From positions 16,812-80,811 of the forward strand of contig JAWCKG010000005.1 of NCBI GenBank assembly GCA_038852285.1: a stretch of DNA of 64,000 nucleotides. Reading direction: 5' to 3'. Positions 12,510 to 60,272 of this stretch are shown here, piece by piece. The stretch's first letter is position 1, and every line of letters begins with the position of its first letter. The notes beneath the pieces are model-generated. The model was not told the origin of the DNA. It was given only the letters and a program-made list of their open reading frames with translations, and did not search any database. The DNA comes from Candidatus Bathyarchaeia archaeon. Lineage in GTDB: Archaea > Thermoproteota > Bathyarchaeia > 40CM-2-53-6 > DTGE01. A program made the translations under genes and the position numbers.

Positions 12510-12513
12510 CTCA

Positions 12514-12666
12514 TCACGGTATTTTACTCAATATCTTAGCGAAGTGCACCAGTTTTTTACATTTGGGGCAAACAACATGCTTGTACCGATTTATTACATC
12601 GAAGTCTATCATATTGCCAGGTAAGCGCCACTGATTCCCACATAAAGGACACTCCAAAGTCGGCAT
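12514..12666 (-). CDS. Small zinc-ribbon protein (50 aa), not present in the ORF track
   Basis: Manual translation of the minus strand gives MPTLECPLCGNQWRLPGNMIDFDVINRYKHVVCPKCKKLVHFAKILSKIP, with CPxC...CPKC pairs. It sits exactly between the GlcF-like and GlcD-like genes on the same strand. Confidence 0.35.
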   Translation of the reverse strand: MPTLECPLCGNQWRLPGNMIDFDVINRYKHVVCPKCKKLVHFAKILSKIP

Positions 12667-12671
12667 TTTCT

Positions 12672-13883: not shown

Positions 13884-14021
13884 TATTCATCGACCAGAAA
13901 GTCCATTATGAAGTAGAGGTTTTGTTGAAGTTATATAAAGGATTTTTTCATCCTGTAGCTTTTTGATCGGTTCATCCACATTATGCCTTGAAAAGTTGAA
14001 CGCTAAACGTGTATCAGCTTT

Positions 14022-15947: not shown

Positions 15948-15964
15948 TTTCTCATCTCTCCCTT

Positions 15965-16459
15965 CTAGAGTCTTTCCGGAGGTCCTATGGGCTCCTTTCG
16001 CCCTATCGAGATGGCCCCACCGTATTCCATCAGCCTCCTTAAATAGGCGGCTTTGTTAGGCTCCACATAGTATAGAACTTTTTTCGGACAATGCTTCACA
16101 CACTCCGGGTCGCCGCCGCACAGATCGCATTTAATAGCCTTACCTGTAACTGGATCTAGCGTTAAAACGCCGTATGGGCATGCGGTGACGCATCTGCCAC
16201 ATGAAGTACATTTTTCCTCATCGATGACCACAGCGTTGGTTTTGGGGTTTCTGTTCATGGCTTTAATAGGACATGCGTCCATGCACAGGCCACATTGAAT
16301 GCAGATCATTGGTATGTCAACGTATGGCTCTGACCTGATCACGTGGATCCTAGATCGAGCAGGGTTGAAGACTTTGCTTTTTATGAAGGAACACCATAGG
16401 ACACATTTCTCACAGCCCGTGCATCGCTCTGGATGGACTGCAAGGATTTTCTGCGCCAT
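15965..16459 (-). CDS. 4Fe-4S polyferredoxin, likely electron acceptor for AOR
   Basis: Four CxxCxxCxxxCP motifs in 164 aa. Lies 18 nt upstream of aor on the same strand. Confidence 0.8.
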   Translation of the reverse strand: MAQKILAVHPERCTGCEKCVLWCSFIKSKVFNPARSRIHVIRSEPYVDIPMICIQCGLCMDACPIKAMNRNPKTNAVVIDEEKCTSCGRCVTACPYGVLTLDPVTGKAIKCDLCGGDPECVKHCPKKVLYYVEPNKAAYLRRLMEYGGAISIGRKEPIGPPERL

Positions 16460-16756
16460 TTATAATTCTTCCTCCTGATTAAGCTCGCAAATTTTTAGTT
16501 GCCCATTTATATTTAAAATATAGTATTTACAACGAATCTGAAATACACCTAAATTATCCTTTTAAGCGGTTTTAAGGTGTTTGAACGCCGTTTTAGTAAG
16601 CCTAAATCTTGTCATATTCGCATTATAACTAGCCACATAATTTACACTTAAAAGTTTTGTCAATAAATGCTTATCCTGGCCTCTTTCATTTCCTATTCTT
16701 ATAAATTATTTGGTGGGTTAATGTTGTTAATTTAGGGGAATGCGAGTTAATTACTG

Positions 16757-17581
16757 TTAATATTTTATAATCGTATGTTGATAGCGTATTTGACTCGTAT
16801 TTTTTCGATTTAGTGCCTTTAAGTGAACAGTTGAAAAAAGCTCATTCCAACGAGACGTTGATGTGGAGGATTTTAAGATGATTCTGGCGTCTACCGCTTG
16901 TAATCCCTTTTCATAGACTAATACAGGGTTGAGGTCTAATTGCTCAATTACCCCTTCGTAGCGCGCAGTCAGATTTGACACTTTGACTAGTGCGTCGACG
17001 ATGGCTCCTATGTCTAGGCGGGGCTGTCTTCTATACCCTTTCAATATTTTTGAGGCTTTCAACTCTTCTATCATTTCCTCCGCGTCTTCCTTGTTGATGG
17101 GCGCGATTCGAAAGGACACGTCCCTGTAGAGTTCAACGTATAAGCCGCCCATGCCCAACATAACGGTTGGGCCGAACTGCGGATCAGCGAGCGAGCCGAT
17201 GATTAATTCAAGCCCCGGCGGCGCCATCTTCTGGACCAATACGCCTTTAAACTCCGCTTTCGACGCATACCTCCTCAGGTTCGCTGCAACAACTTCAAAC
17301 CCAGTTTTAACCTCCTCAGGGTTCTTCAAGTTTACGAGAACCCCGCCTACATCGCTTTTATGCGTTACATGAGGCGAAACGACCTTCAACACCACTGGGT
17401 ATCCAAGCCTCTCAGCCGCTTCAACCGCCTCCCCCGGCGAGTCGGCCAACTGGAACCTCGGCGTGTCGACTCCATACTCCATGCATATGATCTTCGCCTC
17501 ATGCTCGTAAAGGACGGCCCTGTTCTCAGCTTTGGCGTTTTCGAGGATGTGATCGACTTTTGATGTCAACAGAAACCACAC
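16757..17581 (-). CDS. ADP-forming acyl-CoA synthetase beta subunit (ATP-grasp), with a C-terminal extension of about 35 aa
   Basis: The ATP-grasp ACD-beta region aligns with the second beta copy at 53252. The tail KSSTSTSRWNELF... is encoded by AT-rich DNA and may reflect a lost stop codon. Confidence 0.7.
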   Translation of the reverse strand: MWFLLTSKVDHILENAKAENRAVLYEHEAKIICMEYGVDTPRFQLADSPGEAVEAAERLGYPVVLKVVSPHVTHKSDVGGVLVNLKNPEEVKTGFEVVAANLRRYASKAEFKGVLVQKMAPPGLELIIGSLADPQFGPTVMLGMGGLYVELYRDVSFRIAPINKEDAEEMIEELKASKILKGYRRQPRLDIGAIVDALVKVSNLTARYEGVIEQLDLNPVLVYEKGLQAVDARIILKSSTSTSRWNELFSTVHLKALNRKNTSQIRYQHTIIKY

Positions 17582-19004: not shown

Positions 19005-20402
19005 TTGAGCGACATAATCGCGCAGCTGGACCTTTTTTTTAAGGCGAAGTCTGTGGCGGTCATCGGCGCCTCCTCTACGAGGGGAAAAATTGGATACGAG
19101 GTTTTGAAAAGCCTGTGCAAAGGCGAATATAAGGGGAAGGTTTACCCGGTCACCCTCGGTAAAAAGAGGATTCTAGGCCTCAAATGCTACCGGAGCATTT
19201 TAGAGATTCCGGGGAAGGTTGAGTTGGCGGTCGTCATTGTGCCGTCTAAAAAAATATTATCCGTTCTCAAGGAGTGTGGAAACGTTGGGGTGAGGAACGT
19301 CGTCATCATTTCAGCTGGGTTCAAGGAGATGGGCGGTGAATTCGCACAAATAGAGCAGGAGGTGAAGAAGCTGGCTAAAGAGTATTCGATGAGGATTATC
19401 GGCCCCAACTGCATAGGCGTCTACGATTCCGAGACCAAACTGGATACCTTCTTTCAGCCCAGGGTGAGGATGCTCCGCCCTCCGCCCGGAGGCGTTGCGA
19501 TAATGAGTCAGAGCGGGGCCTACGGCCTTACGCTTTTGGAGTGGATTGCTGAAAGCCGCTTCGGCGTCAGCAAGTTTGTCAGCTACGGGAACAGGGTTGA
19601 CGTCGACGAGGCGGACTTGATTAGATACTTTAAGGCGGATGAAAAGACGAAGATAATCGCGATATACGTTGAGGGCGTTGAAAATGGAAGGAAGTTCCTT
19701 GAAGCGGCTAAGGAAACCTCAAAAGAGAAGCCCATACTGGTTTTAAAGGCGGGCAAGACGGGTTTAGGCTCGGAGGGCGCATTAACGCACACAGGCTCGC
19801 TGGCAGGCTCATACGAGGTGTATAAGGCGGCCTTCAAACAGGCAAACCTCATAGAGGCGGAAACCCTCGCAGAGCTGTTCGACATGATGAAGGCGTTGGC
19901 CATGCAACCTCCCGCCGAGGGTAGAAACATAGCCATGACCTCCAACGGAATGGGCCCATGCATAGCGGCCATGGACATCTGCGAGCGGAGAAACCTCACC
20001 GTGGGAGAATACGGCGAGGAGACGGTGAATAGGCTGAAGGAGAGGCTTCCACCTTACTGCGTGGTCGGTAGGGTTGTAGACCTTTCAGGAAGCGCCACCT
20101 CGAAGGATTATGAGGCAACGCTTGAAGCCTTCTTAGAGGATGAGAAGGTCAGCCTCTTGATGCCCTTCTTCATTTTCCAAGACGCCCCCTTGGACGAGGG
20201 CATCATCGAAGTCCTGAGGAAGGTTCGGAAAAAGGCCTCGGAGCTTCAGAAACCAATCATATGCGGGGCGAGTGGAGGACCATACACTAGAAAACAGGTA
20301 AAAGAGGTTGAGCTAATAGGCATACCCGTTTACGAAACGCCTGAAAGAGCCGTCTCAGCGGCCCACGCCCTGATAAAAGCTGGAGAAATACTAAAGCGGT
20401 AA
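19005..20402 (+). CDS. ADP-forming acyl-CoA synthetase alpha subunit (CoA-binding plus ligase-CoA domains)
   Basis: N-terminal CoA-binding fold SVAVIGASSTRGKIGYEV, 465 aa, similar to the copy at 51862. Confidence 0.85.
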   Translation: MSDIIAQLDLFFKAKSVAVIGASSTRGKIGYEVLKSLCKGEYKGKVYPVTLGKKRILGLKCYRSILEIPGKVELAVVIVPSKKILSVLKECGNVGVRNVVIISAGFKEMGGEFAQIEQEVKKLAKEYSMRIIGPNCIGVYDSETKLDTFFQPRVRMLRPPPGGVAIMSQSGAYGLTLLEWIAESRFGVSKFVSYGNRVDVDEADLIRYFKADEKTKIIAIYVEGVENGRKFLEAAKETSKEKPILVLKAGKTGLGSEGALTHTGSLAGSYEVYKAAFKQANLIEAETLAELFDMMKALAMQPPAEGRNIAMTSNGMGPCIAAMDICERRNLTVGEYGEETVNRLKERLPPYCVVGRVVDLSGSATSKDYEATLEAFLEDEKVSLLMPFFIFQDAPLDEGIIEVLRKVRKKASELQKPIICGASGGPYTRKQVKEVELIGIPVYETPERAVSAAHALIKAGEILKR

Positions 20403-31151: not shown

Positions 31152-33140
31152 TTAACGCCTCACTGTGGACAAAATGGCTTCAACCTCGCTCTTCAACTGC
31201 TCATCTGTGAAATGCCTCATTTTAATCGCGCCTGAGGGACATGTGGCGCCGCAGACGCCGCATCCTTTACATAGAACTTGGTTGACCTTAGACCTCTTCA
31301 TTCCCTCTCTGACTTCGAGCTCGATCGCGTTGAAGAAGCAGGCCTGAACGCATAGACCGCAGCCCCCACATCGGTCCTCGTCAACCTCGGCTGTTATCGG
31401 CTCGACGGTAACCACTCCCTTAGATAAGAGGGCTGACGCCCTGCTGGCCGCGGCGCTGGCCTGAGCCACCGTGTCCGGTATGTCTTTAGGCCCCTGGGCG
31501 GTGCCGCAAACATATATGCCATCCGTGAACGTTTCAACCGGCCTAAGCTTTGGGTGGGCTTCAGCTAAGAATCCGTCAGGAGTCGTTGAAAGCTTCAGTA
31601 TGGTTCTCAGCTCCTCGACATCGGATGGAATTAGCCCGGCGGCCAACACGACGAGGTCGAATTCTTCCTCGAACACCTCACCCAGATAGGTGTTTTCATA
31701 TCTTAACCTTAAGTTTCCGGAGACGTCTTCAAGCACCTCAGCGACCCGGCCCCTCACCACTTTCACCCCTTCTCCTTGCACCCTTTCCAGAAACTCCTCG
31801 TATCCTTTCCCGAAGCATCTCAAATCTGTGTAAAAGATGACCACATCCGAGCTTGGATCCTTTTCTTTAACCTGGTGTGCTTGCTTGACGGAGGCCATAC
31901 AGCATATCCTAGAGCAGTACTTGTTGGAGTTTACATCCCTAGATCCGACGCATTGTAGGAAAGCTACCCTTCGAGGCGGCTTACGGTCGGAAGGCCTAAG
32001 TATTTGACCATAGGTGGGCCCTGAGGCGCTGACCATCCGCTCGAACTCTAGGTTTGTTATCACGTTTTTGTATCTTCCATACCCATATTCATATTTCTGT
32101 GAGCAGTCGTATGGTTCGTACCCGGTGGCGATGACGATCGCCCCTACCTTGAGCTTCACCTCCACGGGTTTCTGATCAAAGTCCACCGCCTTTTCAGGGC
32201 AAAACTTCTCGCATACCCTGCAAACGCCTTTCTGATGGTACAGGCAGTGCTCTGGGTCTATGGTGTACTTTAAAGGAACAGCCTGTGGGAACGGGATGTA
32301 TATGGCTTTCCGCTCGCCGAGGCCCATGTCGAACTCGTTGGGAACCCTGACGGGGCATTTTTCAGCGCATAACCCGCAGGCCCTGCACAATTCTTCTCGA
32401 ACAAACCTAGGCTTCCTTAAAACGGTGACTTCGAAGCCTCCTACATTACCCCCCACGGACTTTACTTCGGAGTAGACGAGCAATTCGATGTTTTCGTGTC
32501 TCGAGGCCTCTACCATTTTCGGCGTCAGTATACATGAGGAACAATCTAACGTTGGAAACGTCTTGTCAAGTTGAGCCATATGTCCCCCGAGGGAGGGTTG
32601 CTTCTCAACCAAGTAGACTTTGAAGCCTTGATCCGCTAAGTCGAGTGAGGCTTGAATGCCGGCTACGCCACCACCCACCACTAAGACAGATTTTTCCACC
32701 TCTATGGTAAGGGGTTCAAGAGGCTCATTATGGAGGCTTTTCATCACCGCGGCGGCTACCAGAGCCTTGGCCTTCTCCGTAGCCGCTTCTTTTTGGTTCA
32801 TATGAACCCAGGAGCATTGCTCCCTGATGTTCGCTACCTCCAGCAGGTAGGGGTTGAGTCCCGACTCCTTCACCGTCCTCCTGAATGTTTCCTCATGCAT
32901 CCTCGGCGAGCATGCCGCCACAACCACGCGATTTAATCCCCGTTGCTTCACGTTGTCCTTTATCAATCCTTGTCCTGGGTCGGAGCAGAGGTAAACATAG
33001 TGGGTTGAAAACTCTACCCCGGGAAGTTTCCCAGAGAACTCAGCCAAGGCCTCCACGTTTACTGTTCCGGCGATGTTGCTTCCACAATGGCATATGAAGA
33101 CGCCTATTCTCACAGGCTCTTTTAGAGGCTCATCCTTCAC
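31152..33140 (-). CDS. hdrA: Heterodisulfide reductase subunit A (FAD, multiple Fe-S)
   Basis: 662 aa with the GGGVAG FAD motif, several CxxCxxCxxxCP ferredoxin motifs, and an N-terminal Cys cluster. Confidence 0.9.
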   Translation of the reverse strand: MKDEPLKEPVRIGVFICHCGSNIAGTVNVEALAEFSGKLPGVEFSTHYVYLCSDPGQGLIKDNVKQRGLNRVVVAACSPRMHEETFRRTVKESGLNPYLLEVANIREQCSWVHMNQKEAATEKAKALVAAAVMKSLHNEPLEPLTIEVEKSVLVVGGGVAGIQASLDLADQGFKVYLVEKQPSLGGHMAQLDKTFPTLDCSSCILTPKMVEASRHENIELLVYSEVKSVGGNVGGFEVTVLRKPRFVREELCRACGLCAEKCPVRVPNEFDMGLGERKAIYIPFPQAVPLKYTIDPEHCLYHQKGVCRVCEKFCPEKAVDFDQKPVEVKLKVGAIVIATGYEPYDCSQKYEYGYGRYKNVITNLEFERMVSASGPTYGQILRPSDRKPPRRVAFLQCVGSRDVNSNKYCSRICCMASVKQAHQVKEKDPSSDVVIFYTDLRCFGKGYEEFLERVQGEGVKVVRGRVAEVLEDVSGNLRLRYENTYLGEVFEEEFDLVVLAAGLIPSDVEELRTILKLSTTPDGFLAEAHPKLRPVETFTDGIYVCGTAQGPKDIPDTVAQASAAASRASALLSKGVVTVEPITAEVDEDRCGGCGLCVQACFFNAIELEVREGMKRSKVNQVLCKGCGVCGATCPSGAIKMRHFTDEQLKSEVEAILSTVRR

Positions 33141-34030
33141 TGGACGCTCACCTTGGTGATCTTCCTTAAAAACGGCTGGGTAGATATGGCGTGGGCCTGT
33201 AACCCCAGAAGTCTTGGGTTTAAGCCAAACGCCAACCCTAGTAGCTGGGTTAAATGGACGACTGGTATGTTATATTCTAAGCCCTTCTTCTCGGCTAGCT
33301 CCCTTTGACCTCTATCGAACTGTAGGTGGCAAAAAGCACATACGTTTAATATGCAATCTGCTTGCGACGCCTTTACGTTCTCCAACTTCTCCTTCGTCAT
33401 GTCTAAGGCGAGCTCCAAGTTGGAGGACCTTACCCCTCCGCCTGCTCCGCAACACATGTGCTTGTCCTTATAATCGACGCTTTCGGCCCCTAGGTTTCGA
33501 ACCAACTCATCCACAAATACGGGTTTCTCAGGGTTATCGATCTTTTTCAGAGTTCCAGGCCTCAGAAGATGACATCCATAGTGCACGGCGATTTTCAATC
33601 CAGTCAAGCTCTGACTCAGCCTTTTCACTTGGTCCAAATGTCCCTCATATATCAGCTTGGCGAAGTGATGAACCTCCACGTTTCCCCTGTAAATCCTTCC
33701 AGTTTTAGAAAGGAGCGCATTCACGGTTTTCCTTGTTTCCTCTTCATTTTTGAGCGTATTGTTTGCTTCAAAGAGGGTCCCGAAGCATCCGTTACACAAG
33801 GTAACCACGTCAGCGCGGTTTTCCTCCGCTATGGCAAGGTTTCGAGCCGCCACCGTCAACCAGGTTTGTTCACTAAAAGAGCCAACAACCCCGGGTGCGG
33901 GGCAGCATGAAGCTCCAAGCATGTCTTTCAAATTCACCCCGAGTTTATTGAAAACCATCTTGGTGGCGGATTCTATGCCAGGATACCTATTAGGGACGAT
34001 GCACCCTAGGAACAGGGAGTAACTCGTCAA
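33137..34030 (-). CDS. hdrB: Heterodisulfide reductase subunit B (two CCG domains)
   Basis: CCPAPG and CCGAGGG CCG-domain signatures. 4-nt overlap with hdrA. Confidence 0.85.
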   Translation of the reverse strand: MTSYSLFLGCIVPNRYPGIESATKMVFNKLGVNLKDMLGASCCPAPGVVGSFSEQTWLTVAARNLAIAEENRADVVTLCNGCFGTLFEANNTLKNEEETRKTVNALLSKTGRIYRGNVEVHHFAKLIYEGHLDQVKRLSQSLTGLKIAVHYGCHLLRPGTLKKIDNPEKPVFVDELVRNLGAESVDYKDKHMCCGAGGGVRSSNLELALDMTKEKLENVKASQADCILNVCAFCHLQFDRGQRELAEKKGLEYNIPVVHLTQLLGLAFGLNPRLLGLQAHAISTQPFLRKITKVSVQ

Positions 34031-34539
34031 CCAGTCATCCTCCTGAAACCAGTGGCCTCCAAGATGGTTTCAAGCTCCTTCAGCGATTCAGGGTAGCTGT
34101 GGACGGTCGGAGGTAGCTCGCTCAAACCTAGGCTTTTCCTGACAGCCCTCACTTCATCGTTTATCGGCACCAAGTGACCTGTATCACAAAATAGCCGGGC
34201 CACCTTTTGATGAGCGGCCTTCATGAACCCCTTTCGAACGGCGATATTCCTCAGCCTCTTTATGACCGAGGTTGGCTGGGCGTCACGGGGGCATCGATCA
34301 AAACAGACATAGCAGGTGGTGCATAGCCACAAATCATCGGAGTTTAACACATCTTCGAAACCCATAAGAACCTTTTCCATCAACCGCCTCACCCTTAACT
34401 GTGTCCTTCGACCAGATGGACAGCTACCCGTACAAGCCCCGCATTGAACGCATTTCAGAAGATTTCGACTATGGGATATGAGTTCATCTAATACGGTTTC
34501 AACGGCTCGGGATCGACTTTCTTGGATGGACGTGGGCAA
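34027..34539 (-). CDS. hdrC: Heterodisulfide reductase subunit C (2x[4Fe-4S])
   Basis: CVQCGACTGSCP and CTTCYVCFDRCP motifs. Overlaps the hdrB start. Confidence 0.85.
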   Translation of the reverse strand: MPTSIQESRSRAVETVLDELISHSRNLLKCVQCGACTGSCPSGRRTQLRVRRLMEKVLMGFEDVLNSDDLWLCTTCYVCFDRCPRDAQPTSVIKRLRNIAVRKGFMKAAHQKVARLFCDTGHLVPINDEVRAVRKSLGLSELPPTVHSYPESLKELETILEATGFRRMTG

Positions 34540-34902
34540 AGTTTTCTCCTCAAACCGTGTTGTGGAGAGGGTGCGAGTTGGGTCATATTAACGGAGTTAA
34601 AATATTTAAAGATTATTTAATGTGATGCCGTGCTGGAGACCCCTGCTTTATGACAAAAATATTTTAATTTTATCGGATAAAACCTTCCGATGCTATGTTT
34701 TTTTTAAAAAAAAAGTTTGTCGCTTTACTAAAATTAATTTTCAGATGAGAACTACGAGCTCGCTTTCTTAAACCTCAAATATTATTTAAAAATTTCAAGA
34801 CTTAAACCTATATATAGCACTTTCAAGTGAATTAAACGTGGCTGAAGGCTTTTTTATGTTAAGAGGTTTAAAAATTAATGATTTGTCGGTCTTCGCGACT
34901 GC

Positions 34903-51861: not shown

Positions 51862-53250
51862 TTGATGCCTATGGTTGAAATTAAGGAGAAATTGGAACCT
51901 TTTTTTAACCCGAGCTCCGTGGCAATAATAGGCGCTACTACTAGAACTGGGGCCGGCGCGTTCAACGTTATGGAGAACATGATACGGTTTGGCTACGAGG
52001 GCGAAATTTACCCAGTGAACCCGAGGTATGAGGAGGTTCTAGGAAGGAAGTGCTATAAGGACATTAAGGACGTCGATGGAAAGGTGGATCTTGCTTTAAT
52101 AGCCATTCCTAGGCACATAGTCCCCGGCGTTGTGAAGGACTGCGCGACAAAGAGTATAAACTCGGTCATAATCGTGAGTCAAGGATTCGCGGAGGTTGGA
52201 GGGGAAGGCAAGAAGTTTCAAGATGAAATTGTAGAGACGGCGAAGAAAACTGGAATGAGAATATTGGGTCCGAACACTTTAGGAACCCATAACTTCTTCG
52301 ACAACTTCACATCTTCGTTCATACCCCTTAAGAAGAGGGATTATGAGCCCATCGGCATCATCTGTCAGACCGGGCTCTTCTTCGCCGGGTTCCCCAGGTT
52401 TAGGTACGGAAAGGCCGTAGATGTGGGAGGATGCTGCGATATAGACCCAGTAGACATGGTCAGATATTACGCTGAGGATCCAAACATAAAGCAGATTTTC
52501 GTCCATATGGAAGGCCTTCGGCCGGGTCGAGGCAGAGACTTCCTCGAGGCCGCTAGGGAAGCGAAGGGTAGGGGAAAAGACCTCATCGTTATGAAGGTCG
52601 GGGAAACTGAAACTGGGAAAAAGGCGATAATATCCCATACCGGCTCACTAGCTGTAGAGGATAGGGTGTTCGAAGGAGCTTTACGGCAAGTTGAGGTTCC
52701 ACGCGTTAGGGATTATACCGAGCTGCAAACAGTCAGCCACGCCTTACTTAAGCTTCCTAAGATGAGGGGGAACAGGTTAGCGATGCTGACGCATCATGGA
52801 GCCTCAGGCGTGATGGCGGTGGACGCAGCGGAAGAGTTTGGTTTAAAGTTCGCTGAACTGTCGGAGGAGACAAAGAAGGCTGTACAGGAGCTTTCACCAG
52901 CATGGCTTCCAATCGGAAACCCAATAGACATCTGGCCTGGGTTAATGGGGGGGCCTGAAAAGATGCATGAAACTGCCCTTAAAGCCGTCTTGGAGGATAA
53001 AAACGTGGACGGTGTACTCCTCTCCATTCATATAGCTGACTACAGCCCCTGGCCGATTGGAACCTACGGCCACATCGAAGCCCTCAGAAAGCTTGCTCCC
53101 CAGTACGATAAGCCAGTGATCGTGGTGCCAATAGGCACGGAGCAGGAGGGCACAAGAAGAGGTCTGGAGGAGGTTAAAAACGTGGCGGTGTTTGACAACA
53201 TAAGGGACGCTTTTAAGGCGTTCTCAGCATTAGCGCCCCCTGAGGTTTAG
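51862..53250 (+). CDS. ADP-forming acyl-CoA synthetase alpha subunit
   Basis: CoA-binding N-domain SVAIIGATTRTGAGAFNV, 462 aa. Directly followed by the beta subunit. Confidence 0.85.
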   Translation: MMPMVEIKEKLEPFFNPSSVAIIGATTRTGAGAFNVMENMIRFGYEGEIYPVNPRYEEVLGRKCYKDIKDVDGKVDLALIAIPRHIVPGVVKDCATKSINSVIIVSQGFAEVGGEGKKFQDEIVETAKKTGMRILGPNTLGTHNFFDNFTSSFIPLKKRDYEPIGIICQTGLFFAGFPRFRYGKAVDVGGCCDIDPVDMVRYYAEDPNIKQIFVHMEGLRPGRGRDFLEAAREAKGRGKDLIVMKVGETETGKKAIISHTGSLAVEDRVFEGALRQVEVPRVRDYTELQTVSHALLKLPKMRGNRLAMLTHHGASGVMAVDAAEEFGLKFAELSEETKKAVQELSPAWLPIGNPIDIWPGLMGGPEKMHETALKAVLEDKNVDGVLLSIHIADYSPWPIGTYGHIEALRKLAPQYDKPVIVVPIGTEQEGTRRGLEEVKNVAVFDNIRDAFKAFSALAPPEV

Positions 53251-53251
53251 G

Positions 53252-53986
53252 GTGAGGAGGATGAGGTCCAAGATTTTACAGGAGCTTTCAGCGAAGGGGG
53301 TAGAGCTCCTCAGCGAATATGAGGCTAGAATCATCCTTCAAGAATATGGCATCCCATGCCCCAAGGAGGTGATGGTCGATTACCGAGAGGGAGAGAAGGG
53401 CTCAGAGTACTTAAGAGAGCTCAAAAAGATTGAAGAATGGCCGGGGTATCCGCTGTTTTTCAAAGTGGTGTCCCGCGACATAAAGTCAGCTACAGACGCT
53501 AACGCGATAAGGAGGGCCACCTCGGATGTCGAGGCCGCCCCTCTAATAGACGCGATTATAAGCAACGCAAAAAAGTATAAAGAAGGCATAAAAATTGAGG
53601 GGATTCTGGCCAGCGAAGACGTTTCCACCCATGAAACCCGAGAGATGCTCATCGGGTCCACGGTTAACGAGCAGTTCGGCCACCTCATCTCCCTAGGATT
53701 CGGGGGCGTTTACGTAGAAGTTTACAGAGACGTGGAGTTTAGAGTAATCCCCATCAAGGAACTGGACGTCCACAACATGATCAAGCATTTAAGAGGAAGA
53801 GAGTTGCTTGGAGCGTTCAGAACGGCGAGACCTGTGGACTTGAGGTTGCTTGTTGACACCGTTCTTAAAGTTTCGAAGATGGTTGAGGAAAACCCTGAGA
53901 TAGTTGAGCTAGACATAAATCCCTTGATCGTTGGCCCCGACCGAGCTGTAGCCGTGGACACGTTGATCAGGATGCGGGCGAAGTAG
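53252..53986 (+). CDS. ADP-forming acyl-CoA synthetase beta subunit (ATP-grasp)
   Basis: 244 aa ATP-grasp protein. Starts 2 nt after the alpha stop. Confidence 0.8.
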   Translation: MRRMRSKILQELSAKGVELLSEYEARIILQEYGIPCPKEVMVDYREGEKGSEYLRELKKIEEWPGYPLFFKVVSRDIKSATDANAIRRATSDVEAAPLIDAIISNAKKYKEGIKIEGILASEDVSTHETREMLIGSTVNEQFGHLISLGFGGVYVEVYRDVEFRVIPIKELDVHNMIKHLRGRELLGAFRTARPVDLRLLVDTVLKVSKMVEENPEIVELDINPLIVGPDRAVAVDTLIRMRAK

Positions 53987-53987
53987 C

Positions 53988-56702
53988 GTGGAGCTTATAC
54001 CCACATATTGCTACCAGTGCTATAATGGTCCAGACCCCATACTGGTAAAGGTGGAAGACGGTTTCGCCGTTGGAGTCGAGCCGAACTACGCCCTAGCCTC
54101 CAAACACCATTCTGGTGGGAGGGTTTGCTCAAACGCCTATGGATTGATTGAGAAACTATATAATCCGCACAGGGTGAAGACGCCTTTACTTAGAACGAAT
54201 CCGAACAAGGGGGGAAATGAAGACCCTGGTTGGAAGGAGATAAGCTGGGGCGAAGCCCTAGACATCTTAGCAGACAGGTTTCGGAAGGTGAAGGAGAAGG
54301 GAGGCGTGGACGAGAACGGATACCCGAGGATGGCTCTGACCCTAGGGGCCGCGGGCACTCCTGAGGGCCACTTCGGCCTGTTACCAACCTTTTTATCAAC
54401 GATGTTTAGGTGGGTGGGGCCTATGGACTTGACTATAGGAACCGGTCAAGGCGTAAAATGCTACCATTCAGAGCATGTATATGGTGAATTCTGGCATAGG
54501 GCCTTCATGGTTGTCGCCGATCTCCCCAGAACGAGATATTTAATCTCTTTTGGCCACAACGACGTTGGCTCCGACGGTGTCACCGCTTGGAGGTTGGCTC
54601 AGGCCAAGGAGGATGGGTTAAAAATCGTTAAGGTGGAGCCGCATCTTTCGGCCAGCGCGGCCTTCGCGGATAAGGTGGTTTTTATTAAGCCGAAAACGGA
54701 TGCCATGTTCCTCTTCTCCATGATACATGTGATTCTTCATGAAAATAACTGGCGGGAAGTTTGCGACCTAGAGTTCCTAAAGAAAATTACGAATAGCCCC
54801 TATTTGATAGGACCTAACGGATACTACATAAGAGATGTGGAAACAAGAAAGCCATTAGTATGGGATCCCGGTGACGTAAGAGCGAAACGTCACGACGACC
54901 CCTCAATTAAGGACTACGCGTTGGAGGGAAAATTTGAGGTAGGGGGAGTGGAGGTAGGACCTAACGGAGAGGTTTGGGAGCATGAAACCGTTGAATGTAA
55001 GCCCAGCTTTCAACTGCTTATGGCTCATGTGAAGGAGTATACGCCTGAATACGCAGAGAAAGTATGCGAGATTCCTAAAGGCACTGTGAGGGATGTAACT
55101 AAAGAGTTCCTTGAAAACGCATGCGTAGGAATGATGGTGGAGGTGAACGGAGAGAAGCTTCCTTACAGGCCTGTCGCCATAGAGTTGGGAAAGACCGTCA
55201 ATAACGGCCCCGGAGGATATGAAACCTGCTGGGCTCGAACGGTATTGCTTTCACTCGTCGGAGCGCTGGAAGTCCCAGGAGGAGCCATCGGCTCAGGAAG
55301 CAGGTTAAACCCTCCTTACGAGATGCGGTGGATGAGCGTAGAACCCGGCCCGGATGGCTTTATGCTTCAAAATCTAAATCCAACGGGCAAGGAGGAGTGG
55401 CCTCCAAAGGTGATGTTTAGAGGGCCCTTCACGGCGCTTTGCCCCATCATGGGATCCCGAGGATGGGCAAGCGGAATAGCCCCATTTACGCTGGCCTGGA
55501 TGTTCATGGATGAGACCCCTGAGGGCTGGCCTAATCCATCACCTCCCGACATCTGGATCATATACCGGGCAAACCCGCTCAGAACCCAGTGGGACCCAGG
55601 CCTCATGGAAAGGGTGGTGAAGAAGTGCCCGTTCATAACCCACATCACCTACATCATAGATGAGACAAGCTGGTACGCCGACCTGGTCCTACCCGACCAC
55701 ACAGACTTGGAAGGATACCAACTAACTCCAATCTTCTCCAAGCATTGGTATAGCCTGTGGGATCACTACGGCTACATCCTAAAGCAACCGGTCGTGAAGC
55801 CCATTCACAACACGATGGACATGACGGACATCATAGTCGAGTTAATGGACAGGTTGGGACTGCTGGTAGAGTTTAACTCTCGGGTTAACAGGGGGTCCGG
55901 CACTGGGATCCCACTAGCCGGCGGAAACTACGATTTTAGGCTGAAGGAGGATGAAAAACACGGTTCAGAGGAGATCTGGGATAGAATATGTAAAGCGGCT
56001 ACAGCGATGTTAAGCGACGGAAAAGAAACATACGGATTAGACTGGTTTAAGAAGAACAGCATTTATTTAAAGCCTTACCCAAAACCTGAGAAATACCTGT
56101 ATTACGTGTTAAAAAAGAAGGGCCTCAGGTTTGAGGTCCCCTATCAGGAAAGCGTCAAGAAAGTTGGAGCTGCGCTTAAAAATAGGCTCCATGAACGGGG
56201 GATTAAATGGTGGGATAGACAGCTTGAAGAATATCAAGCGCTACCGCGCGCGAAGGACTTTTCTAAGTTGTGGGATGAATACTACTTAAAGATTGGAGTG
56301 AACCCTGAAGACTTTGACATGTGGTTGATCGCCAGCAGAAGCCCCAACTTGGTGTGGACGGGCAATGTGTCAAACCGTAGGATGCTTAAAGCGGCGGCGA
56401 GGGCCTTAGACTTCGGAGGCGTTGTGATAAACAGGGAGGCGGCTGGTGAAAGGGGGATTGAACATGGAGACGCCGTCATCGTGGAGTCTCCCTTCGGGAA
56501 AAAGAAGAGTAGGGTGATCGTAAGGGAGGGACAAAGGCCAGATGTGGCCCTGCTCGTCGGCCAGCTCGGCCAATGGGTAGCCCCATACGCTAAGGATGTA
56601 CCCGCACCGAATGTAAGCGACTTCGTCAAGCTTGACCTAGACATTCTAGACGCTGGAGGGTCCTCATGCGACCTGACTCGAGTAAGAATCTATAAGGCAT
56701 AA
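53988..56702 (+). CDS. Molybdopterin (bis-PGD) oxidoreductase catalytic subunit. Cytoplasmic (no Tat signal), with a degenerate FS0 motif.
   Basis: 904 aa, DMSO-reductase-family architecture. The N-terminus reads CYQCYNGP (CxxCxxxP in place of CxxCxxxC) with a fourth Cys at RVCSNAYG. There is no twin-arginine leader. The GTG start lies 2 nt after the ACD-beta stop. Confidence 0.85.
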   Translation: MELIPTYCYQCYNGPDPILVKVEDGFAVGVEPNYALASKHHSGGRVCSNAYGLIEKLYNPHRVKTPLLRTNPNKGGNEDPGWKEISWGEALDILADRFRKVKEKGGVDENGYPRMALTLGAAGTPEGHFGLLPTFLSTMFRWVGPMDLTIGTGQGVKCYHSEHVYGEFWHRAFMVVADLPRTRYLISFGHNDVGSDGVTAWRLAQAKEDGLKIVKVEPHLSASAAFADKVVFIKPKTDAMFLFSMIHVILHENNWREVCDLEFLKKITNSPYLIGPNGYYIRDVETRKPLVWDPGDVRAKRHDDPSIKDYALEGKFEVGGVEVGPNGEVWEHETVECKPSFQLLMAHVKEYTPEYAEKVCEIPKGTVRDVTKEFLENACVGMMVEVNGEKLPYRPVAIELGKTVNNGPGGYETCWARTVLLSLVGALEVPGGAIGSGSRLNPPYEMRWMSVEPGPDGFMLQNLNPTGKEEWPPKVMFRGPFTALCPIMGSRGWASGIAPFTLAWMFMDETPEGWPNPSPPDIWIIYRANPLRTQWDPGLMERVVKKCPFITHITYIIDETSWYADLVLPDHTDLEGYQLTPIFSKHWYSLWDHYGYILKQPVVKPIHNTMDMTDIIVELMDRLGLLVEFNSRVNRGSGTGIPLAGGNYDFRLKEDEKHGSEEIWDRICKAATAMLSDGKETYGLDWFKKNSIYLKPYPKPEKYLYYVLKKKGLRFEVPYQESVKKVGAALKNRLHERGIKWWDRQLEEYQALPRAKDFSKLWDEYYLKIGVNPEDFDMWLIASRSPNLVWTGNVSNRRMLKAAARALDFGGVVINREAAGERGIEHGDAVIVESPFGKKKSRVIVREGQRPDVALLVGQLGQWVAPYAKDVPAPNVSDFVKLDLDILDAGGSSCDLTRVRIYKA

Positions 56703-56715
56703 AGAGGGCGACGAC

Positions 56716-57363
56716 ATGACGCATTGGGGGATGGTGATAGACCTAGGGAAATGCATCGGCTGCATGACATGTACAGTCGCGTGTGAATGCGAAAACTTCC
56801 TTCCTTATGGACTCTCATGGGCGAAGGTTGCGGATTTCGAAGATGGAAAATACCCCGCGGTTAAAAGAACGTTCCTTCCAACGCTATGCATGCATTGTGA
56901 TGAAGCTCCCTGTGTGAAGACGTGCCCCACTGAGGCTACGATGAGGCGTGAAGACGGAGTCGTCATAACCGACTATGACAAATGCATCGGCTGCAGGCTC
57001 TGCATGATCGCTTGCCCCTACGATTCCCGCTCATACGTGGAGAAACTAGAGCTACCTTTGCCGTTATCTTTAATGAAAAAAGAGGTTAGGTCCAAGTATC
57101 AGCTCATAAAAGATCAAACGGCGTCAAAATGCACCTTCTGCGCCCACAGAATAGACAAGGCGAAGGAAACAGGCAAAACACCTGGCAAGGATCCTGAAGT
57201 AACACCGATATGCGTAAACACCTGCGTAGGAAACGCCAGGTATTTCGGAGACCTAGAAAACCCGGAAAGCGAGGTTTCAAAGCTCGCGAAAAGCGACAGA
57301 GCCTTCGTGCTTTACGAGGAAGCAAAAACCCGTCCTTCCGTATACTACTTAAAGAGGAGGTGA
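56716..57363 (+). CDS. Four-cluster 4Fe-4S ferredoxin subunit (DmsB/PsrB-like)
   Basis: CIGCMTCTVAC, CMHCDEAPC, CIGCRLCMIACP and CTFC...C motifs. Confidence 0.85.
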   Translation: MTHWGMVIDLGKCIGCMTCTVACECENFLPYGLSWAKVADFEDGKYPAVKRTFLPTLCMHCDEAPCVKTCPTEATMRREDGVVITDYDKCIGCRLCMIACPYDSRSYVEKLELPLPLSLMKKEVRSKYQLIKDQTASKCTFCAHRIDKAKETGKTPGKDPEVTPICVNTCVGNARYFGDLENPESEVSKLAKSDRAFVLYEEAKTRPSVYYLKRR

Positions 57364-57372
57364 TCGACATCC

Positions 57373-59343
57373 TTGAAGGAGCAGCGAATACCGGTGGAGG
57401 TCGTTAACCCCGTCGGATATAAAATACCTGAAATATTATATGATCTTCGCCAACGACCTCTGGAGTTCAACCTGGAGGAGCTTAAGAAGAGGCTACGCAG
57501 CATCCGCAAGTATACTGTCGACAACTTGGACTCACTACTCCAGCGTTTAGAGAGGTCTTTGAAACGATACCCGGAGGTCAGTCTCATCTATGCCCGCGAC
57601 GCTGAGGAGGCGGTGGAAGCTTTGAAGAATGTATGCGGATCGATTAGAAGGCTTTCGGTAAATAAGTCAAACACTGTGGAGGAGTTGAGGAAACCGTTAG
57701 CCGAGCAGGGCTTCGAAATCGAAGAAACATATTATCAACAATTTGAGGACTTCACACCTGTTAAGGAGAGGAAGCCCTACTGGCAGATGCCGGAGGTTCC
57801 CTCAGAGGTTAAGTGGAGGTCGTTTACCTCCAACCCATTTCGATGGGAAGTGAATAGTGGAGGGTTAAGTGAAAGCGGTAGGGTCATCCTGTTCGGCATT
57901 AACGCCATCTCAGCCGAGGACGGCACAATATTCTTCTTAGAGCATTCAAGAAACATTTCGGGAGGACTGCGCGAAGCATCACATATGATATTTTTAGTTG
58001 GCCTGGAGAAGGTGGTGCGCAACCGAGAAGACGGAGTTTTTCAAACTCGATCTGCAGGTTTATTTGGCTTTGAAGGCATTACGTCTGAGTTGAAGCTCCA
58101 AGGCGCGGAGCGTGAGCCACTATACGAGAGCCGAGGGCAGGCCTTGAACCCAAGAATCTCCATCATCCTACTGGATAATGGGAGAAGGGCCATTCAGAAA
58201 AGAGAAGACCTCAGAGAATTGCTTTACTGTATTGGTTGCCGGACATGCAACGCCGTGTGTCCATTCTCTTATTCTTCCATGCGCGCAGGGGAATGGACGA
58301 AAGGACCTAGAAACTGGATTAAAATGTTTAGGGAGACGTTCATGCAGGAGGCGCGGACTAACGCAGAAATGGTTTGGGATTGCACGACCTGTAAGTCATG
58401 TGAGGCGCATTGTCCACTTGAAATAGGGCAGGTCTATAAGTTCATTAAGATGAGGGAACAATTGGTCGAGGAGGGGAGGGGGCCTCTACCTCAACATGTC
58501 CGCTTCGGCGAAAGTGTGAAGGCGAACTACAATCCGTACCGAGAGCCGCATAGTGAAAGGTTCGCGTGGCTTAACGAGACCTTAAAGCGAAAGGCTGAAA
58601 CAGTGTACTTCGCGGGTTGCACCGCATGTTACAGGGAAAAGTCCATCGCTGAATCTACTGTTAAAATTTTGAATTCTCTTAACATAAACTTCGGCGTTCT
58701 CGGAGAACAGGAGTGGTGTTGTGGTTCACCTCTACTGCGAACTGGTCAAAGAAGGCTAGCCCTCGAAGTGGCTAAACACAACGTCAACTCGATAGTGGAA
58801 AGTGGAGCGAAAAGAGTTGTTACGTCTTGCGCTGGATGCTATGTAACTATGAAAGAAGACTATGAGAGGCTGCTCGGCCTCAAGCCTGATTTCGATGTGT
58901 TACATATCTCGGAGCTTCTATACTCACTCTTGGAAATGGGGAACCTAACGTTTAAAAAGGGATTAAACATGGTCGCAACCTACCATGACCCATGCCACTT
59001 AAGCAGAAGCCGAGCAGTATTCCTACCTGAGCCGGAAAGGCATAGGGTTTATGAGCCCCCAAGACGGGTTCTCCAAGCCATACCGGAATTGAAGTTTGTT
59101 GAAATGCTAAGAAGCCGAGACCATGCATGGTGCTGTGGCGCGGGAGGGGGCGTTAAAGCAGCCTCCCCAGACGTGGCGGTGTGGATGGCAACTGAGAGGA
59201 TTAAAGAGGCGGAAGAGGCCAAGGCTCAGGTAATGGTAACCGCCTGCCCATTCTGCGTGCGAAACCTGCGAGACGCTACGGTGGCGGCTAACAAACCAGT
59301 CAGGGTATTCGACCTGACAGAACTCGTATCTCAAGCCTTATAG
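57373..59343 (+). CDS. LUD-domain (LutB-like), 2x[4Fe-4S], two-CCG-domain (HdrD/LutA-like) fusion protein
   Basis: N-terminal LUD/DUF162-like region, CIGCRTCNAVCP and CTTCKSCEAHCP ferredoxin motifs, then CCG signatures (CCGSP; HDPCHLSR...CCGAGGG). No TM helices. Confidence 0.8.
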   Translation: MKEQRIPVEVVNPVGYKIPEILYDLRQRPLEFNLEELKKRLRSIRKYTVDNLDSLLQRLERSLKRYPEVSLIYARDAEEAVEALKNVCGSIRRLSVNKSNTVEELRKPLAEQGFEIEETYYQQFEDFTPVKERKPYWQMPEVPSEVKWRSFTSNPFRWEVNSGGLSESGRVILFGINAISAEDGTIFFLEHSRNISGGLREASHMIFLVGLEKVVRNREDGVFQTRSAGLFGFEGITSELKLQGAEREPLYESRGQALNPRISIILLDNGRRAIQKREDLRELLYCIGCRTCNAVCPFSYSSMRAGEWTKGPRNWIKMFRETFMQEARTNAEMVWDCTTCKSCEAHCPLEIGQVYKFIKMREQLVEEGRGPLPQHVRFGESVKANYNPYREPHSERFAWLNETLKRKAETVYFAGCTACYREKSIAESTVKILNSLNINFGVLGEQEWCCGSPLLRTGQRRLALEVAKHNVNSIVESGAKRVVTSCAGCYVTMKEDYERLLGLKPDFDVLHISELLYSLLEMGNLTFKKGLNMVATYHDPCHLSRSRAVFLPEPERHRVYEPPRRVLQAIPELKFVEMLRSRDHAWCCGAGGGVKAASPDVAVWMATERIKEAEEAKAQVMVTACPFCVRNLRDATVAANKPVRVFDLTELVSQAL

Positions 59344-59390
59344 GCTCCTCGAGGAGTAATGGTAGCGTCATCTGCTCGGCCAACTGTTTT

Positions 59391-59425
59391 ACGTTGAAAA
59401 TTAATTTTTACGTTGAAAATTAATT
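59391..59425. repeat. Exact tandem direct repeat acgttgaaaattaatt x2 (period 19)
   Basis: Identical 16-mers at 59391-59406 and 59410-59425. Confidence 0.8.
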
Positions 59426-59491
59426 AATGAGTGACGAGGCCTCATAAGGGGGCGTTCAACGATTTTTTTTAGAAGGTGCTCCCTTGTCGGG

Positions 59492-59533
59492 GATTGTGAA
59501 GAATGATTAAATGATTGTGAAGAATGATTAAAT
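59492..59533. repeat. Exact tandem direct repeat gattgtgaagaatgattaaat x2 (21-nt unit)
   Basis: Two perfect head-to-tail copies at 59492-59512 and 59513-59533. Confidence 0.85.
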
Positions 59534-59583: not shown

Positions 59584-59748
59584 TTATCGTCGGTCAACGA
59601 CGAAATATTTGTTACCTTTCTTAACGACCTTATGACCTCCCTGCTTCAGAAACCTCATCTGCGATTCAGCTCCTCTAGGATACTTTTCGTTTATCACGCC
59701 GCCAATTTTGAGGGTACGCCAATAAGGCGCGAGGTCCCATTCACCCAT
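59584..59748 (-). CDS. Hypothetical small protein (54 aa), not in the ORF track
   Basis: Manual translation gives MGEWDLAPYWRTLKIGGVINEKYPRGAESQMRFLKQGGHKVVKKGNKYFVVDRR. A GGAG motif lies 9 nt upstream of the ATG. The ORF overlaps a composition-poor plus-strand ORF. Confidence 0.2.
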   Translation of the reverse strand: MGEWDLAPYWRTLKIGGVINEKYPRGAESQMRFLKQGGHKVVKKGNKYFVVDRR

Positions 59749-60272
59749 TTCGCTTCTCCTTCAGCGGCGCGGGCCGCTCTCCAAGCGAAAACACCTATGG
59801 GTAAAGAACAGCCGATCGTTGCGTTGTGTTTTTCTAGCTAGGATTGCTCGAATCACGCTAACCGTGGTGATTCTACTCCCATGGCATTTTTTCATCAACT
59901 TGTCAGCTTCAATGGGCGCTGGAATAACAACAGTGCTGATCCCGTCTTCTCGTTATCTTCCCTGAAATTTTCTCAACTCTTGGCAAATCCTTGCTGTTCC
60001 TTAATTTTTCACGCCAACTTTTTATCTTCACCATCCTACCCACATTCAAGATGATTAACCTCATTTTCATTTATATGAGTCACTAATAGAGAGAGTGAGA
60101 GGGGACGAATTCAACTTAACGCAAATATGGTGAACAGATGTTTAGATGGAGGCTATTCGATGATGAAAATGGGTGTAAAGCGTTGGGGTTCGCTGGCGGG
60201 TTTAATAAGCCAATGTCCTATCCCCTAATACGTTTTTCGAAAAATCCATCGAAAATTTGATGGGTCTCTCCC

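Follow-up and report, generated by a model that had tools for sequence, protein, structure and literature searches.

The stretch of DNA analysed here (64,000 nucleotides from a Candidatus Bathyarchaeia archaeon; hereafter the window) carries, on its plus strand, a cassette of five genes separated by gaps of 1, 1, 13 and 9 nt (Table 1). The two subunits of an ADP-forming acyl-coenzyme A (acyl-CoA) synthetase (ACD) come first. They are followed by a cytoplasmic, PadB-like catalytic subunit of the molybdenum or tungsten bis-pyranopterin guanine dinucleotide type (Mo subunit), by a four-cluster iron-sulfur (FeS) subunit of the PadC/PsrB/ArrB type and, at the end, by a fusion protein that joins a LutB-like part (a LUD domain and a 2x[4Fe-4S] ferredoxin domain) to an HdrD/LutA-like part with two CCG domains. 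An initial annotation, read from the sequence, had described the fusion as embedded in a molybdoenzyme operon, and it does directly follow the genes for ACD-alpha, ACD-beta, the Mo subunit and the FeS subunit. That annotation overlooked the dedicated ACD, the absence of LutC, the kinship of the Mo subunit with a PadB-like family linked to CoA esters, and the swapped-in origin of the CCG half. It is the cassette context, a tightly spaced, soluble archaeal five-gene unit, and not the fusion that stands out.

On TIGR02717, an acetyl-CoA synthetase model, the cassette ACD-alpha scores 352 bits (cutoff 567), compared to 474 bits for the window's other ACD-alpha, and is thus the more divergent of the two. 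The FeS subunit, whose 17 cysteines are arranged in four cluster motifs, matches the NCBIfam models ArrB, QrcC, DsrO and TtrB at 156-173 bits. None of the five cassette proteins has a transmembrane-like segment; the fusion, described at the outset as soluble, indeed looks so. The cassette contains no NrfD-like gene.

Is the arrangement peculiar to this contig? A search for the same fusion and its partners in other archaea, as the initial annotation had suggested, returned the five-gene order in eight further loci, counting fragments: the same genes stand in the same order in L001, L002, L003, L006/L007 and L095, and L005 and L096 are contig-end fragments of the arrangement. The flanking genes are unrelated. 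Among the sources are metagenome-assembled genomes (MAGs) of Thermoproteota and Thermoplasmatota, Bathyarchaeia being represented by the window itself; a Brockarchaeota contig carries the Mo subunit and a partial fusion. ACD-beta is syntenic in all cassette loci, the fusion gene sits at a spacing of 9-30 nt, and the partners are conserved at 73-79% identity (Mo subunit), 68-76% (FeS subunit) and 71-80% (ACD-alpha). The full-length fusion family occurs in this data set only in the cassette context. A scan of genome contigs with the full-length alignment, dominated by the CCG pattern, brought up stand-alone HdrD-like genes and no full-length relative, and none of these genes has PadB-like or ACD neighbours at cassette-level identity. 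No LutC-like gene was found by hhalign, phmmer or tblastn in the cassette loci or the 64-kb window, and no lactate permease in any cassette locus. In a phmmer comparison of YkgG, the N-terminal part of YkgF and that of the fusion with all open reading frames (ORFs) of the window, no second LUD protein appeared.

Domain make-up and relatives of the fusion protein

The fusion gene is an uninterrupted ORF, and its product is 100% identical over its full length to P0001, an NCBI protein from a Candidatus Bathyarchaeia MAG whose product name is only 'heterodisulfide reductase-related iron-sulfur binding cluster'. On the single sequence, Pfam clearly recognises two CCG domains (E 4.7e-37) and Fer4_8 (residues 282-351, E 5e-10). 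LUD_dom matches residues 71-223 with E 7e-4 and a marginal 19.8 bits, under the gathering score of 22.6, which makes the single-sequence LUD call borderline. Two ferredoxin motifs of the form CxxCxxCxxxCP, C286-C296 (CIGCRTCNAVCP, from residue 286) and C337-C347 (CTTCKSCEAHCP, from residue 337), precede two complete HdrB-type CCG motifs (C416..C449C450..C486xxC489 and C541..C587C588..C625xxC628) with 10 cysteines in total; together they make up all the cofactor-binding motifs needed for a wire of two cubane clusters that leads to two HdrB-type clusters at a catalytic CCG site. Position 486, a cysteine of the five-cysteine first CCG motif in the fusion, is a serine in the cassette orthologues P0004-15. 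The LUD domain carries the LutB hallmark stretches G175-x-N-A-x-S-A-E-D-G-T and L266-x-D-N-G-R271.

At the level of the family, the LUD assignment is firm. Among the fusion and 14 full-length homologues (alignment A1, 42-81% identity), LUD_dom matches 15 of 15 members at E<=0.01, the best at 2.4e-8. Compared by hhalign with the E. coli proteins, the family profile is colinear with YkgF/LutB (34-379 on YkgF 48-402, probability 98.4%, E 1e-14), and the C-terminal half aligns with YkgE/LutA (412-655 on 5-236 of 239, probability 94.5%, E 7e-8). The profile shows no relationship to YkgG/LutC, and a LutC-like identity of the N-terminal domain was ruled out by this null result; the domain is LutB-like. 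The isolated N-terminal 282 residues of the fusion match NCBIfam LutB (E 4.5e-11) and LdhH (E 3.5e-8). An AlphaFold model of the fusion, built on a 36-sequence alignment (pLDDT 83.6, pTM 0.85), retrieves through Foldseek the LutB and LutA chains of 9a6l, an integrative model of LutA-LutB (E 4e-14 and 8e-12), with a target TM-score of 0.81 for the LutA chain; HdrB chains of several Hdr complexes are also retrieved, at about 0.7, and, more weakly, 2g40, a crystal structure of LutC. The LutB hallmark residues R45, S99, N194 and D268-N-G-R271 do not vary among 36 fused relatives. The closest relatives by sequence and structure are EtfD, HdrB, TfrB and LutA. The domain make-up first proposed for the 656-residue chain thus stands: ferredoxin and CCG domains are evident in the single sequence, and the N-terminal LUD/DUF162 domain, sub-threshold there, is recognised across the family by LUD_dom, by hhalign and by fold.

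Less can be said for the view, also in the initial annotation, that LutA and LutB are separate proteins in bacteria, which is too strong. DVU3033 (LldH) of Desulfovibrio vulgaris combines DUF162, a dicluster of the 4Fe-4S kind and a pair of CCG domains in one chain and, with the DUF162 protein LldG, is by deletion genetics an L-lactate dehydrogenase (PMC4481167). The 'LutB' of Thermodesulfovibrio has the same architecture (PMC5165239), Fer4_8 and CCG are among the frequent partner domains in the 2013 paper that defined LUD (PMC3924224), and NCBIfam holds an equivalog for the single-chain form (NF045670 LdhH). An exhaustive HMMER search with residues 1-366 returned 635 representative clusters at E<=1e-3; the best 150 comprise 41 fused proteins (at least 600 aa and at least two CCG motifs) and 56 split ones (380-500 aa, no CCG motif), and fused and split forms alternate within the sister clade of the cassette proteins in a neighbour-joining tree. 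With its architecture already known in bacteria, the fusion is not unusual as such and would by itself be ordinary.

How close, then, is it to the characterised systems? With LldH/LdhH it shares the single chain of LUD, dicluster and two CCG domains, and the LdhH model matches both halves, but the score of 196 bits compares with a cutoff of 800 for NF045670; moreover, the fusion has neither an LldG/LutC partner nor a lactate permease or por-pta-ack context, and a Mo enzyme is its partner instead. Its N-terminal half is colinear with LutB and its C-terminal half with LutA of the LutABC/YkgEFG/LldEFG systems, and its fold matches 9a6l. On TIGR00273 (LutB/LldF), however, it reaches 84 bits against a cutoff of 444.8. 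DUF3390, the C-terminal region of LutB, is absent from its Pfam matches, with two CCG domains after the dicluster instead. Unlike in LutABC, the LutA-like module is fused in cis, LutC is missing, and the CCG domains have 5+5 cysteines as in HdrB, YkgE apparently having fewer in our own reading of the hhalign alignment.

From the HdrD/TfrB/GlcF group, TfrB is the model on which the C-terminal half (dicluster and two CCG domains) scores best, at 254 bits and below the cutoff of 385; all curated Hdr, Tfr and DsrK models score the fusion under their cutoffs. HdrB chains in the PDB are matched by the CCG part both in sequence and in fold. The fusion differs from this group in its added N-terminal LUD domain and LutB-type dicluster, and in its partner, a bisPGD-type Mo enzyme where the group has GlcD or a fumarate reductase flavoprotein. 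GlcD-HdrD units are found in Bathyarchaeia, Methanomethylicia and Korarchaeia, and their role outside methanogens has been termed puzzling (PMC10667645). The top PDB match of the ferredoxin and CCG part is mycobacterial EtfD (9ojn; sequence E 2e-29, Foldseek E 2e-20). EtfD is likewise a CCG-built electron-output module, but without a LUD domain. It is anchored in the membrane, and its electron donor is electron transfer flavoprotein.

The two halves of the fusion relate differently to the cassette orthologues. Over residues 1-366, identity to P0004-15 is mostly 55-70%, with 43-62% for the first 70 positions and for the last 50, while residues 367-656 share only 19-44% with them; set against the C-terminal halves of P0004-15, this part reaches 34-41%, and 34% with the cassette orthologue P0005. 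The fusion, P0002 and P0003 have in common a C-terminal half that differs from that of P0004-15. In the fusion this half is 68% identical to P0016, a stand-alone HdrD-like protein of 404 aa, and 58-63% identical to P0017-25; P0016 and P0023 adjoin GlcD-like flavin adenine dinucleotide (FAD) enzymes, genes of the aldehyde:ferredoxin oxidoreductase (AOR) family, and CoA ligases or transferases. The recombination joint lies at about residue 367 (position 58471), just past the second ferredoxin motif. By these identities, the CCG half was swapped in from a stand-alone HdrD lineage. The HdrD paralogue within the window (12672-13883), considered as donor, was rejected at 45% identity compared to 68% for the P0016 type. 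Because the N-terminal part is conserved while the C-terminal half diverges, the CCG module is interchangeable and the LUD and ferredoxin domains track the Mo enzyme; an exchange that leaves the cassette undisturbed fits a generic, interchangeable output module.

Such a C-terminal half, at home in other contexts, and the bare NCBI product name could also mean that the protein acts on its own, as an HdrD-like disulfide reductase or as an FeS protein of unrelated function, and that nothing functional follows from its place behind the Mo and FeS genes. We regard this as highly improbable: the protein holds the same position, at close spacing and among unrelated flanks, in the eight further loci from at least three phylum-level lineages, its full-length family was met only there, and its sister proteins are equally tied to AOR and ferredoxin genes.

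These sister proteins emerged from a metagenome scan with the alignment of the N-terminal part, followed by tblastn with reference proteins, which sorted the relatives into three tiers. The first (59-64% identity to the N-terminal part) belongs to the five-gene cassette. The second (29-37%) consists of LutB-like genes, mostly split into a gene of about 440 aa and a separate LutA-like gene and sometimes fused; in 11 loci (L097, L098, L101, L104, L105, L108, L109, L110, L114, L116, L118) their immediate neighbours are genes for a tungsten enzyme of the AOR family and its ferredoxin. Most of the other second-tier loci sit on contigs that end too early for neighbours to be seen; L113 has a weak Mo-like and FeS match instead, and LutC is absent from every second-tier locus. 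The third tier (23-29%) comprises fused proteins preceded by a LutC-like gene, the LldGH arrangement. The two fused out-group proteins checked one by one, P0044 and P0090, also adjoin AOR genes. Altogether 13 LutB-like loci are linked to AOR and ferredoxin (the 11 above, L008 and L094), none of them with LutC. A quick neighbour-joining distance tree of the N-terminal parts, calculated without support values, sets the LutC-linked (LldH) clade apart from a clade linked to pterin enzymes, within which the PadB-linked cassette proteins are monophyletic. We found no literature that links LutB/DUF162 proteins with AOR or PadB-like enzymes.

The Mo subunit, its anchored relatives and a proposed path of electrons

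Many homologues of the Mo subunit (48-77% identity) are labelled 'phenylacetyl-CoA:acceptor oxidoreductase' by JGI, and the best curated families are PhsA and ArrA, along with type II dimethyl sulfoxide reductases, all matched far under their cutoffs. When plasmids were searched by tblastn with the Mo subunit, no match exceeded 29% identity and no authentic pad cluster came up. In three distant loci, L089 (MSBL1; 60% Mo identity), L090 and L091 (Caldarchaeum; both about 49-50%), the Mo and FeS genes are followed by an NrfD-family gene of 257-292 aa, so that in 3 of 3 the NrfD-type anchor takes the position of the fusion in the cassette. The simplest reading is that the fusion replaces the NrfD membrane anchor of a PadB-like enzyme, a quinone-reducing anchor giving way to a soluble FeS output module. 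The conserved synteny in eight loci and the place held by NrfD back the initial idea of an electron entry or exit, and the latter gives it a direction.

CoA esters recur around this family. A PaaK-like phenylacetate-CoA ligase, which scores 415 bits on TIGR02155, and an ABC transporter of the amino-acid type are encoded close to the Mo and FeS genes of L091. L090 (4549-12889) holds a bacterial PadBCD-like operon (Mo, FeS, NrfD) between two HGD-D genes, which are 2-hydroxyacyl-CoA dehydratase/benzoyl-CoA reductase-like, and two BcrAD/BadFG activase genes, with an acyl-CoA dehydrogenase, a thioesterase and a TetR regulator upstream. Together with the ACD of the window, a link to CoA-ester metabolism is present in every neighbourhood examined. 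In the Pad pathway, PadJ activates phenylacetate, PadBCD carries out the alpha-oxidation to phenylglyoxylate and PadEFGHI lead on to benzoyl-CoA (PMC5109826; PMC4453571). The cassette resembles PadBCD of Thauera/Aromatoleum in its large Mo subunit and four-cluster FeS subunit of similar sizes and in a CoA-activating enzyme encoded alongside, as padJ is in pad clusters (PMC4453571; PMC5109826). It differs in lacking a membrane subunit, the LUD-Fer4-CCG protein standing in the NrfD/PadD position, in having an ADP-forming ACD where the pad systems have an AMP-forming PadJ/PaaK ligase, and in that padEFGHI genes are not adjacent.

Catalytic subunits of the Psr/Phs/Arr type are exported. The Mo subunit of the cassette has no twin-arginine (Tat) leader, its chain starting directly at the FS0 region, and a periplasmic reductase of that type was rejected on this ground and on that of its CoA-ester enzyme neighbours. 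Might the fusion instead be a conventional LldH/LdhH-type dehydrogenase of L-lactate or another 2-hydroxyacid, passing electrons from lactate to the Mo enzyme, which would act as a cytoplasmic terminal reductase, for instance of sulfur or arsenic compounds, after the manner of Psr/Phs/Arr? It has the LldH architecture, the LdhH match includes the N-terminal part, the top curated matches of the Mo subunit are reductases, and for the HdrD/GlcD units of related archaea a coupling of lactate oxidation with the reduction of heterodisulfide has been suggested (PMC10667645). Yet the LdhH score is far under its cutoff, LutC/LldG and lactate permease are missing from all cassette loci, and the N-terminal part falls outside the LutC-linked clade. 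The Mo subunit, for its part, lacks a Tat signal and has relatives beside CoA-ester enzymes rather than sulfur or arsenic genes, and an obligatory ACD pair would go unexplained. We consider this alternative quite improbable.

The reading we favour, and hold to be somewhat probable, makes the fusion the third, soluble electron-exit subunit of a cytoplasmic, PadBCD-related molybdo- (or tungsto-) pterin acyl-CoA oxidoreductase. The Mo subunit would oxidise the alpha-carbon of an acyl-CoA, probably an arylacetyl-CoA from the breakdown of aromatic amino acids, and the co-encoded ACD would supply or consume this substrate, making or harvesting the thioester. Electrons would flow from the four PadC-like clusters into the fusion, first to its two [4Fe-4S] clusters and then to its HdrB/HdrD-type CCG clusters, where an acceptor that is soluble or membrane-peripheral would take them up; a quinone or a disulfide, for example a heterodisulfide-like cofactor, may serve as this acceptor. 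In membrane-bound relatives, the corresponding task falls to the NrfD-type anchor PadD, which reduces quinone. The LUD domain, which co-evolves with both the Mo and the FeS subunit, would most likely serve to dock the module onto them or to bind a second small substrate. No mcr genes were noticed in the 64-kb window.

A precedent exists in BamB-I, the class II benzoyl-CoA reductase, whose tungsten enzyme is of the AOR family and whose electron module is HdrD/HdrA-like. There, too, a pterin enzyme acting on CoA esters is wired to CCG-domain, Hdr-like subunits and not to a membrane anchor. It differs from the cassette in its AOR-family tungsten subunit, in lacking LUD and in its flavin-based bifurcation subunits, of which the cassette has none.

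Several points weigh against an electron-exit subunit of a PadBCD-related enzyme. The label 'PadB' is automatic JGI naming, so that the likeness is to proteins carrying this name, and the best curated NCBIfam matches of the Mo subunit, far below cutoff as they are, remain PhsA and ArrA. The FS0 motif of the Mo subunit (53988-54130; C8-x2-C11 ... C47) lacks its third cysteine, with Pro/Asp where this residue is usual. The NrfD-linked contexts compared are three only, and the presumed physical complex is read from synteny. The retained LutB hallmark residues argue for a LUD function beyond docking. Finally, oxidation of an alpha-methylene group at about 0 mV with a heterodisulfide-type acceptor is, by our own uncomputed estimate, thermodynamically tight unless cleavage of the thioester is coupled to it.

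Does the LUD domain contribute a catalytic site of its own? The cassette could encode a two-site alpha-oxidase, in which the Mo subunit hydroxylates acyl-CoA to 2-hydroxyacyl-CoA, the LUD domain oxidises the 2-hydroxyacyl(-CoA) to the 2-oxo product, both electron pairs exit through the CCG domains and ACD harvests the thioester as ATP. This would refine, not exclude, the electron-exit reading. The homologue of LUD in LutB-type L-lactate dehydrogenases is presumed to form the substrate site. The hallmark residues of LUD are kept in all 36 fused relatives, and together with the ferredoxin domain LUD co-evolves with the Mo and FeS subunits, the CCG half being exchangeable. LldGH, of the same architecture, is genetically an L-2-hydroxyacid (lactate) dehydrogenase (PMC4481167). 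The dehydratase-type flanks of L090 point to 2-hydroxyacyl-CoA chemistry in the PadB-like family, and in a second cassette of the window (see below) the corresponding slot, next to AOR and an HdrD-like protein, is filled by a GlcD-type D-2-hydroxyacid dehydrogenase. Against this, bacterial PadBCD is described as taking phenylacetyl-CoA all the way to phenylglyoxylate with the three Pad subunits only (PMC5109826; PMC4453571). In LutABC itself the site of catalysis has yet to be pinpointed, LutC, required in all characterised Lut/Lld enzymes, is absent from cassette and window, and the AOR-linked sister proteins have no obvious 2-hydroxyacid intermediate. On balance, a two-site enzyme seems rather unlikely.

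A still broader proposal, unlikely in our estimation, joins these threads. LutC-less LutB(A)-type proteins would be unrecognised electron-handling subunits of molybdenum- or tungsten-pterin oxidoreductases (AOR and PadB-like), with LUD as a second catalytic site for a 2-hydroxyacyl intermediate; the complex of the cassette would oxidise arylacetyl-CoA to an arylglyoxylyl product, pass four electrons to a thiol/disulfide-type acceptor at the CCG domains and, through ACD, save the thioester as ATP. If true, it would amount to a quinone-independent, ATP-yielding route of aromatic amino-acid oxidation, and would provide a first function for LUD outside lactate metabolism and for the 'puzzling' HdrD-like proteins of non-methanogenic archaea.

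The literature searched, on padB together with Bathyarchaeia and HdrD, yielded no description of such a soluble five-gene cassette, in which a PadBC-like enzyme has a LutB/LutA-HdrD module where an anchor would be expected and is accompanied by an ACD. The cassette makes three matters testable: the role of LUD, which occurs here without LutC and bound to a different kind of enzyme; that of HdrD-like CCG proteins in archaea without methane production (PMC10667645); and the disposal of electrons from PadBCD-type molybdenum C-H hydroxylation in strict anaerobes that possibly lack high-potential quinones. Being small (five genes), soluble and conserved, the cassette is suited to heterologous expression.

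Other features of the window and of neighbouring loci

Table 1. Features of the five-gene cassette, its 3' region and the second cassette, with positions in the window
Feature	Position	Strand	Description
ADP-forming acyl-CoA synthetase (ACD) alpha	51862..53250	+	462 aa, first cassette gene; Pfam Succ_CoA_lig, CoA_binding_2
ACD beta	53252..53986	+	ATP-grasp, 244 aa; Pfam ATP-grasp_5, E 1e-47
Mo/W-bisPGD catalytic subunit, PadB-like, cytoplasmic	53988..56702	+	904 aa; Pfam Molybdopterin, Molydop_binding
Four-cluster FeS subunit, PadC/PsrB/ArrB type	56716..57363	+	215 aa; Pfam Fer4_11
LUD-Fer4-CCG2 fusion protein	57373..59343	+	Uninterrupted ORF, TTG start, 656 aa
LUD (DUF162) domain	57460..58212	+	Approx. 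residues 30-280; Pfam LUD_dom, hhalign to YkgF
2x[4Fe-4S] ferredoxin domain	58213..58470	+	Residues 281-366; Fer4_8
HdrD/LutA-type module, two CCG domains	58471..59340	+	Residues 367-656; swapped-in module; CCG x2
19-nt tandem unit TTTTACGTTGAAAATTAAT	59387-59425		x2.1
T8 run about 120 nt past fusion stop	59463..59470	+	Possible archaeal terminator, operon end; read from sequence
21-nt tandem unit GATTGTGAAGAATGATTAAAT	59492-59533		x2
Second-cassette GlcD-like FAD oxidase	10989-12509	-	
Second-cassette stand-alone HdrD-like protein	12672-13883	-	Fer4+2xCCG
Second-cassette tungsten AOR	14022-15947	-	
Second-cassette polyferredoxin	15965-16459	-	163 aa
Second-cassette ACD-beta	16757-17581	-	
ACD-alpha near second cassette	19005-20402	+	

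Downstream of the cassette, no ORF of at least 80 aa lies between 59343 and 60273, and ribosomal protein genes follow on the other strand. Two perfect tandem duplications (59387-59533) enclose the T8 run. By eye, a small ORF of about 50 codons (MGEWDLAPYWRTLKIGG...) can be read on the minus strand at about 59590-59750, within the 930-bp gap between the cassette and rpS19. No tRNA genes occur near the cassette. A scan for sigma-70 promoters and intrinsic terminators stayed at chance level, these bacterial models being inapplicable to an archaeon.

A second, parallel cassette occupies 10989-17581 on the minus strand, together with 19005-20402 on the plus strand. It is built on the principle of the first cassette, combining a pterin enzyme, a ferredoxin, CCG domains, a module of the 2-hydroxyacid-dehydrogenase type and ACD, with GlcD in place of LUD. 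A pair of neighbouring minus-strand ORFs at 33140-34587 also gives matches, at E 3e-15 and 9e-5, to the CCG/ferredoxin part of the fusion; by these matches they are probably HdrB- and HdrC-like genes, which would bring the CCG-domain loci in this genome region to at least three.

In L002 (11554-17574), the cassette is followed by a fumarate-reductase/succinate-dehydrogenase flavoprotein, a Fer2_3+Fer4+CCG subunit (TfrB/SdhB-E-like) and a pair of AOR and ferredoxin genes, so that CCG proteins are again clustered with pterin enzymes. The gene combination of L090 is unusual. In L089 (7001-12179), a metallo-beta-lactamase/ODP-family gene (317 aa) stands between the PadB-like Mo subunit and the FeS and NrfD genes, and a complex-I-like (Nuo/Fpo) gene set lies directly upstream on the opposite strand.

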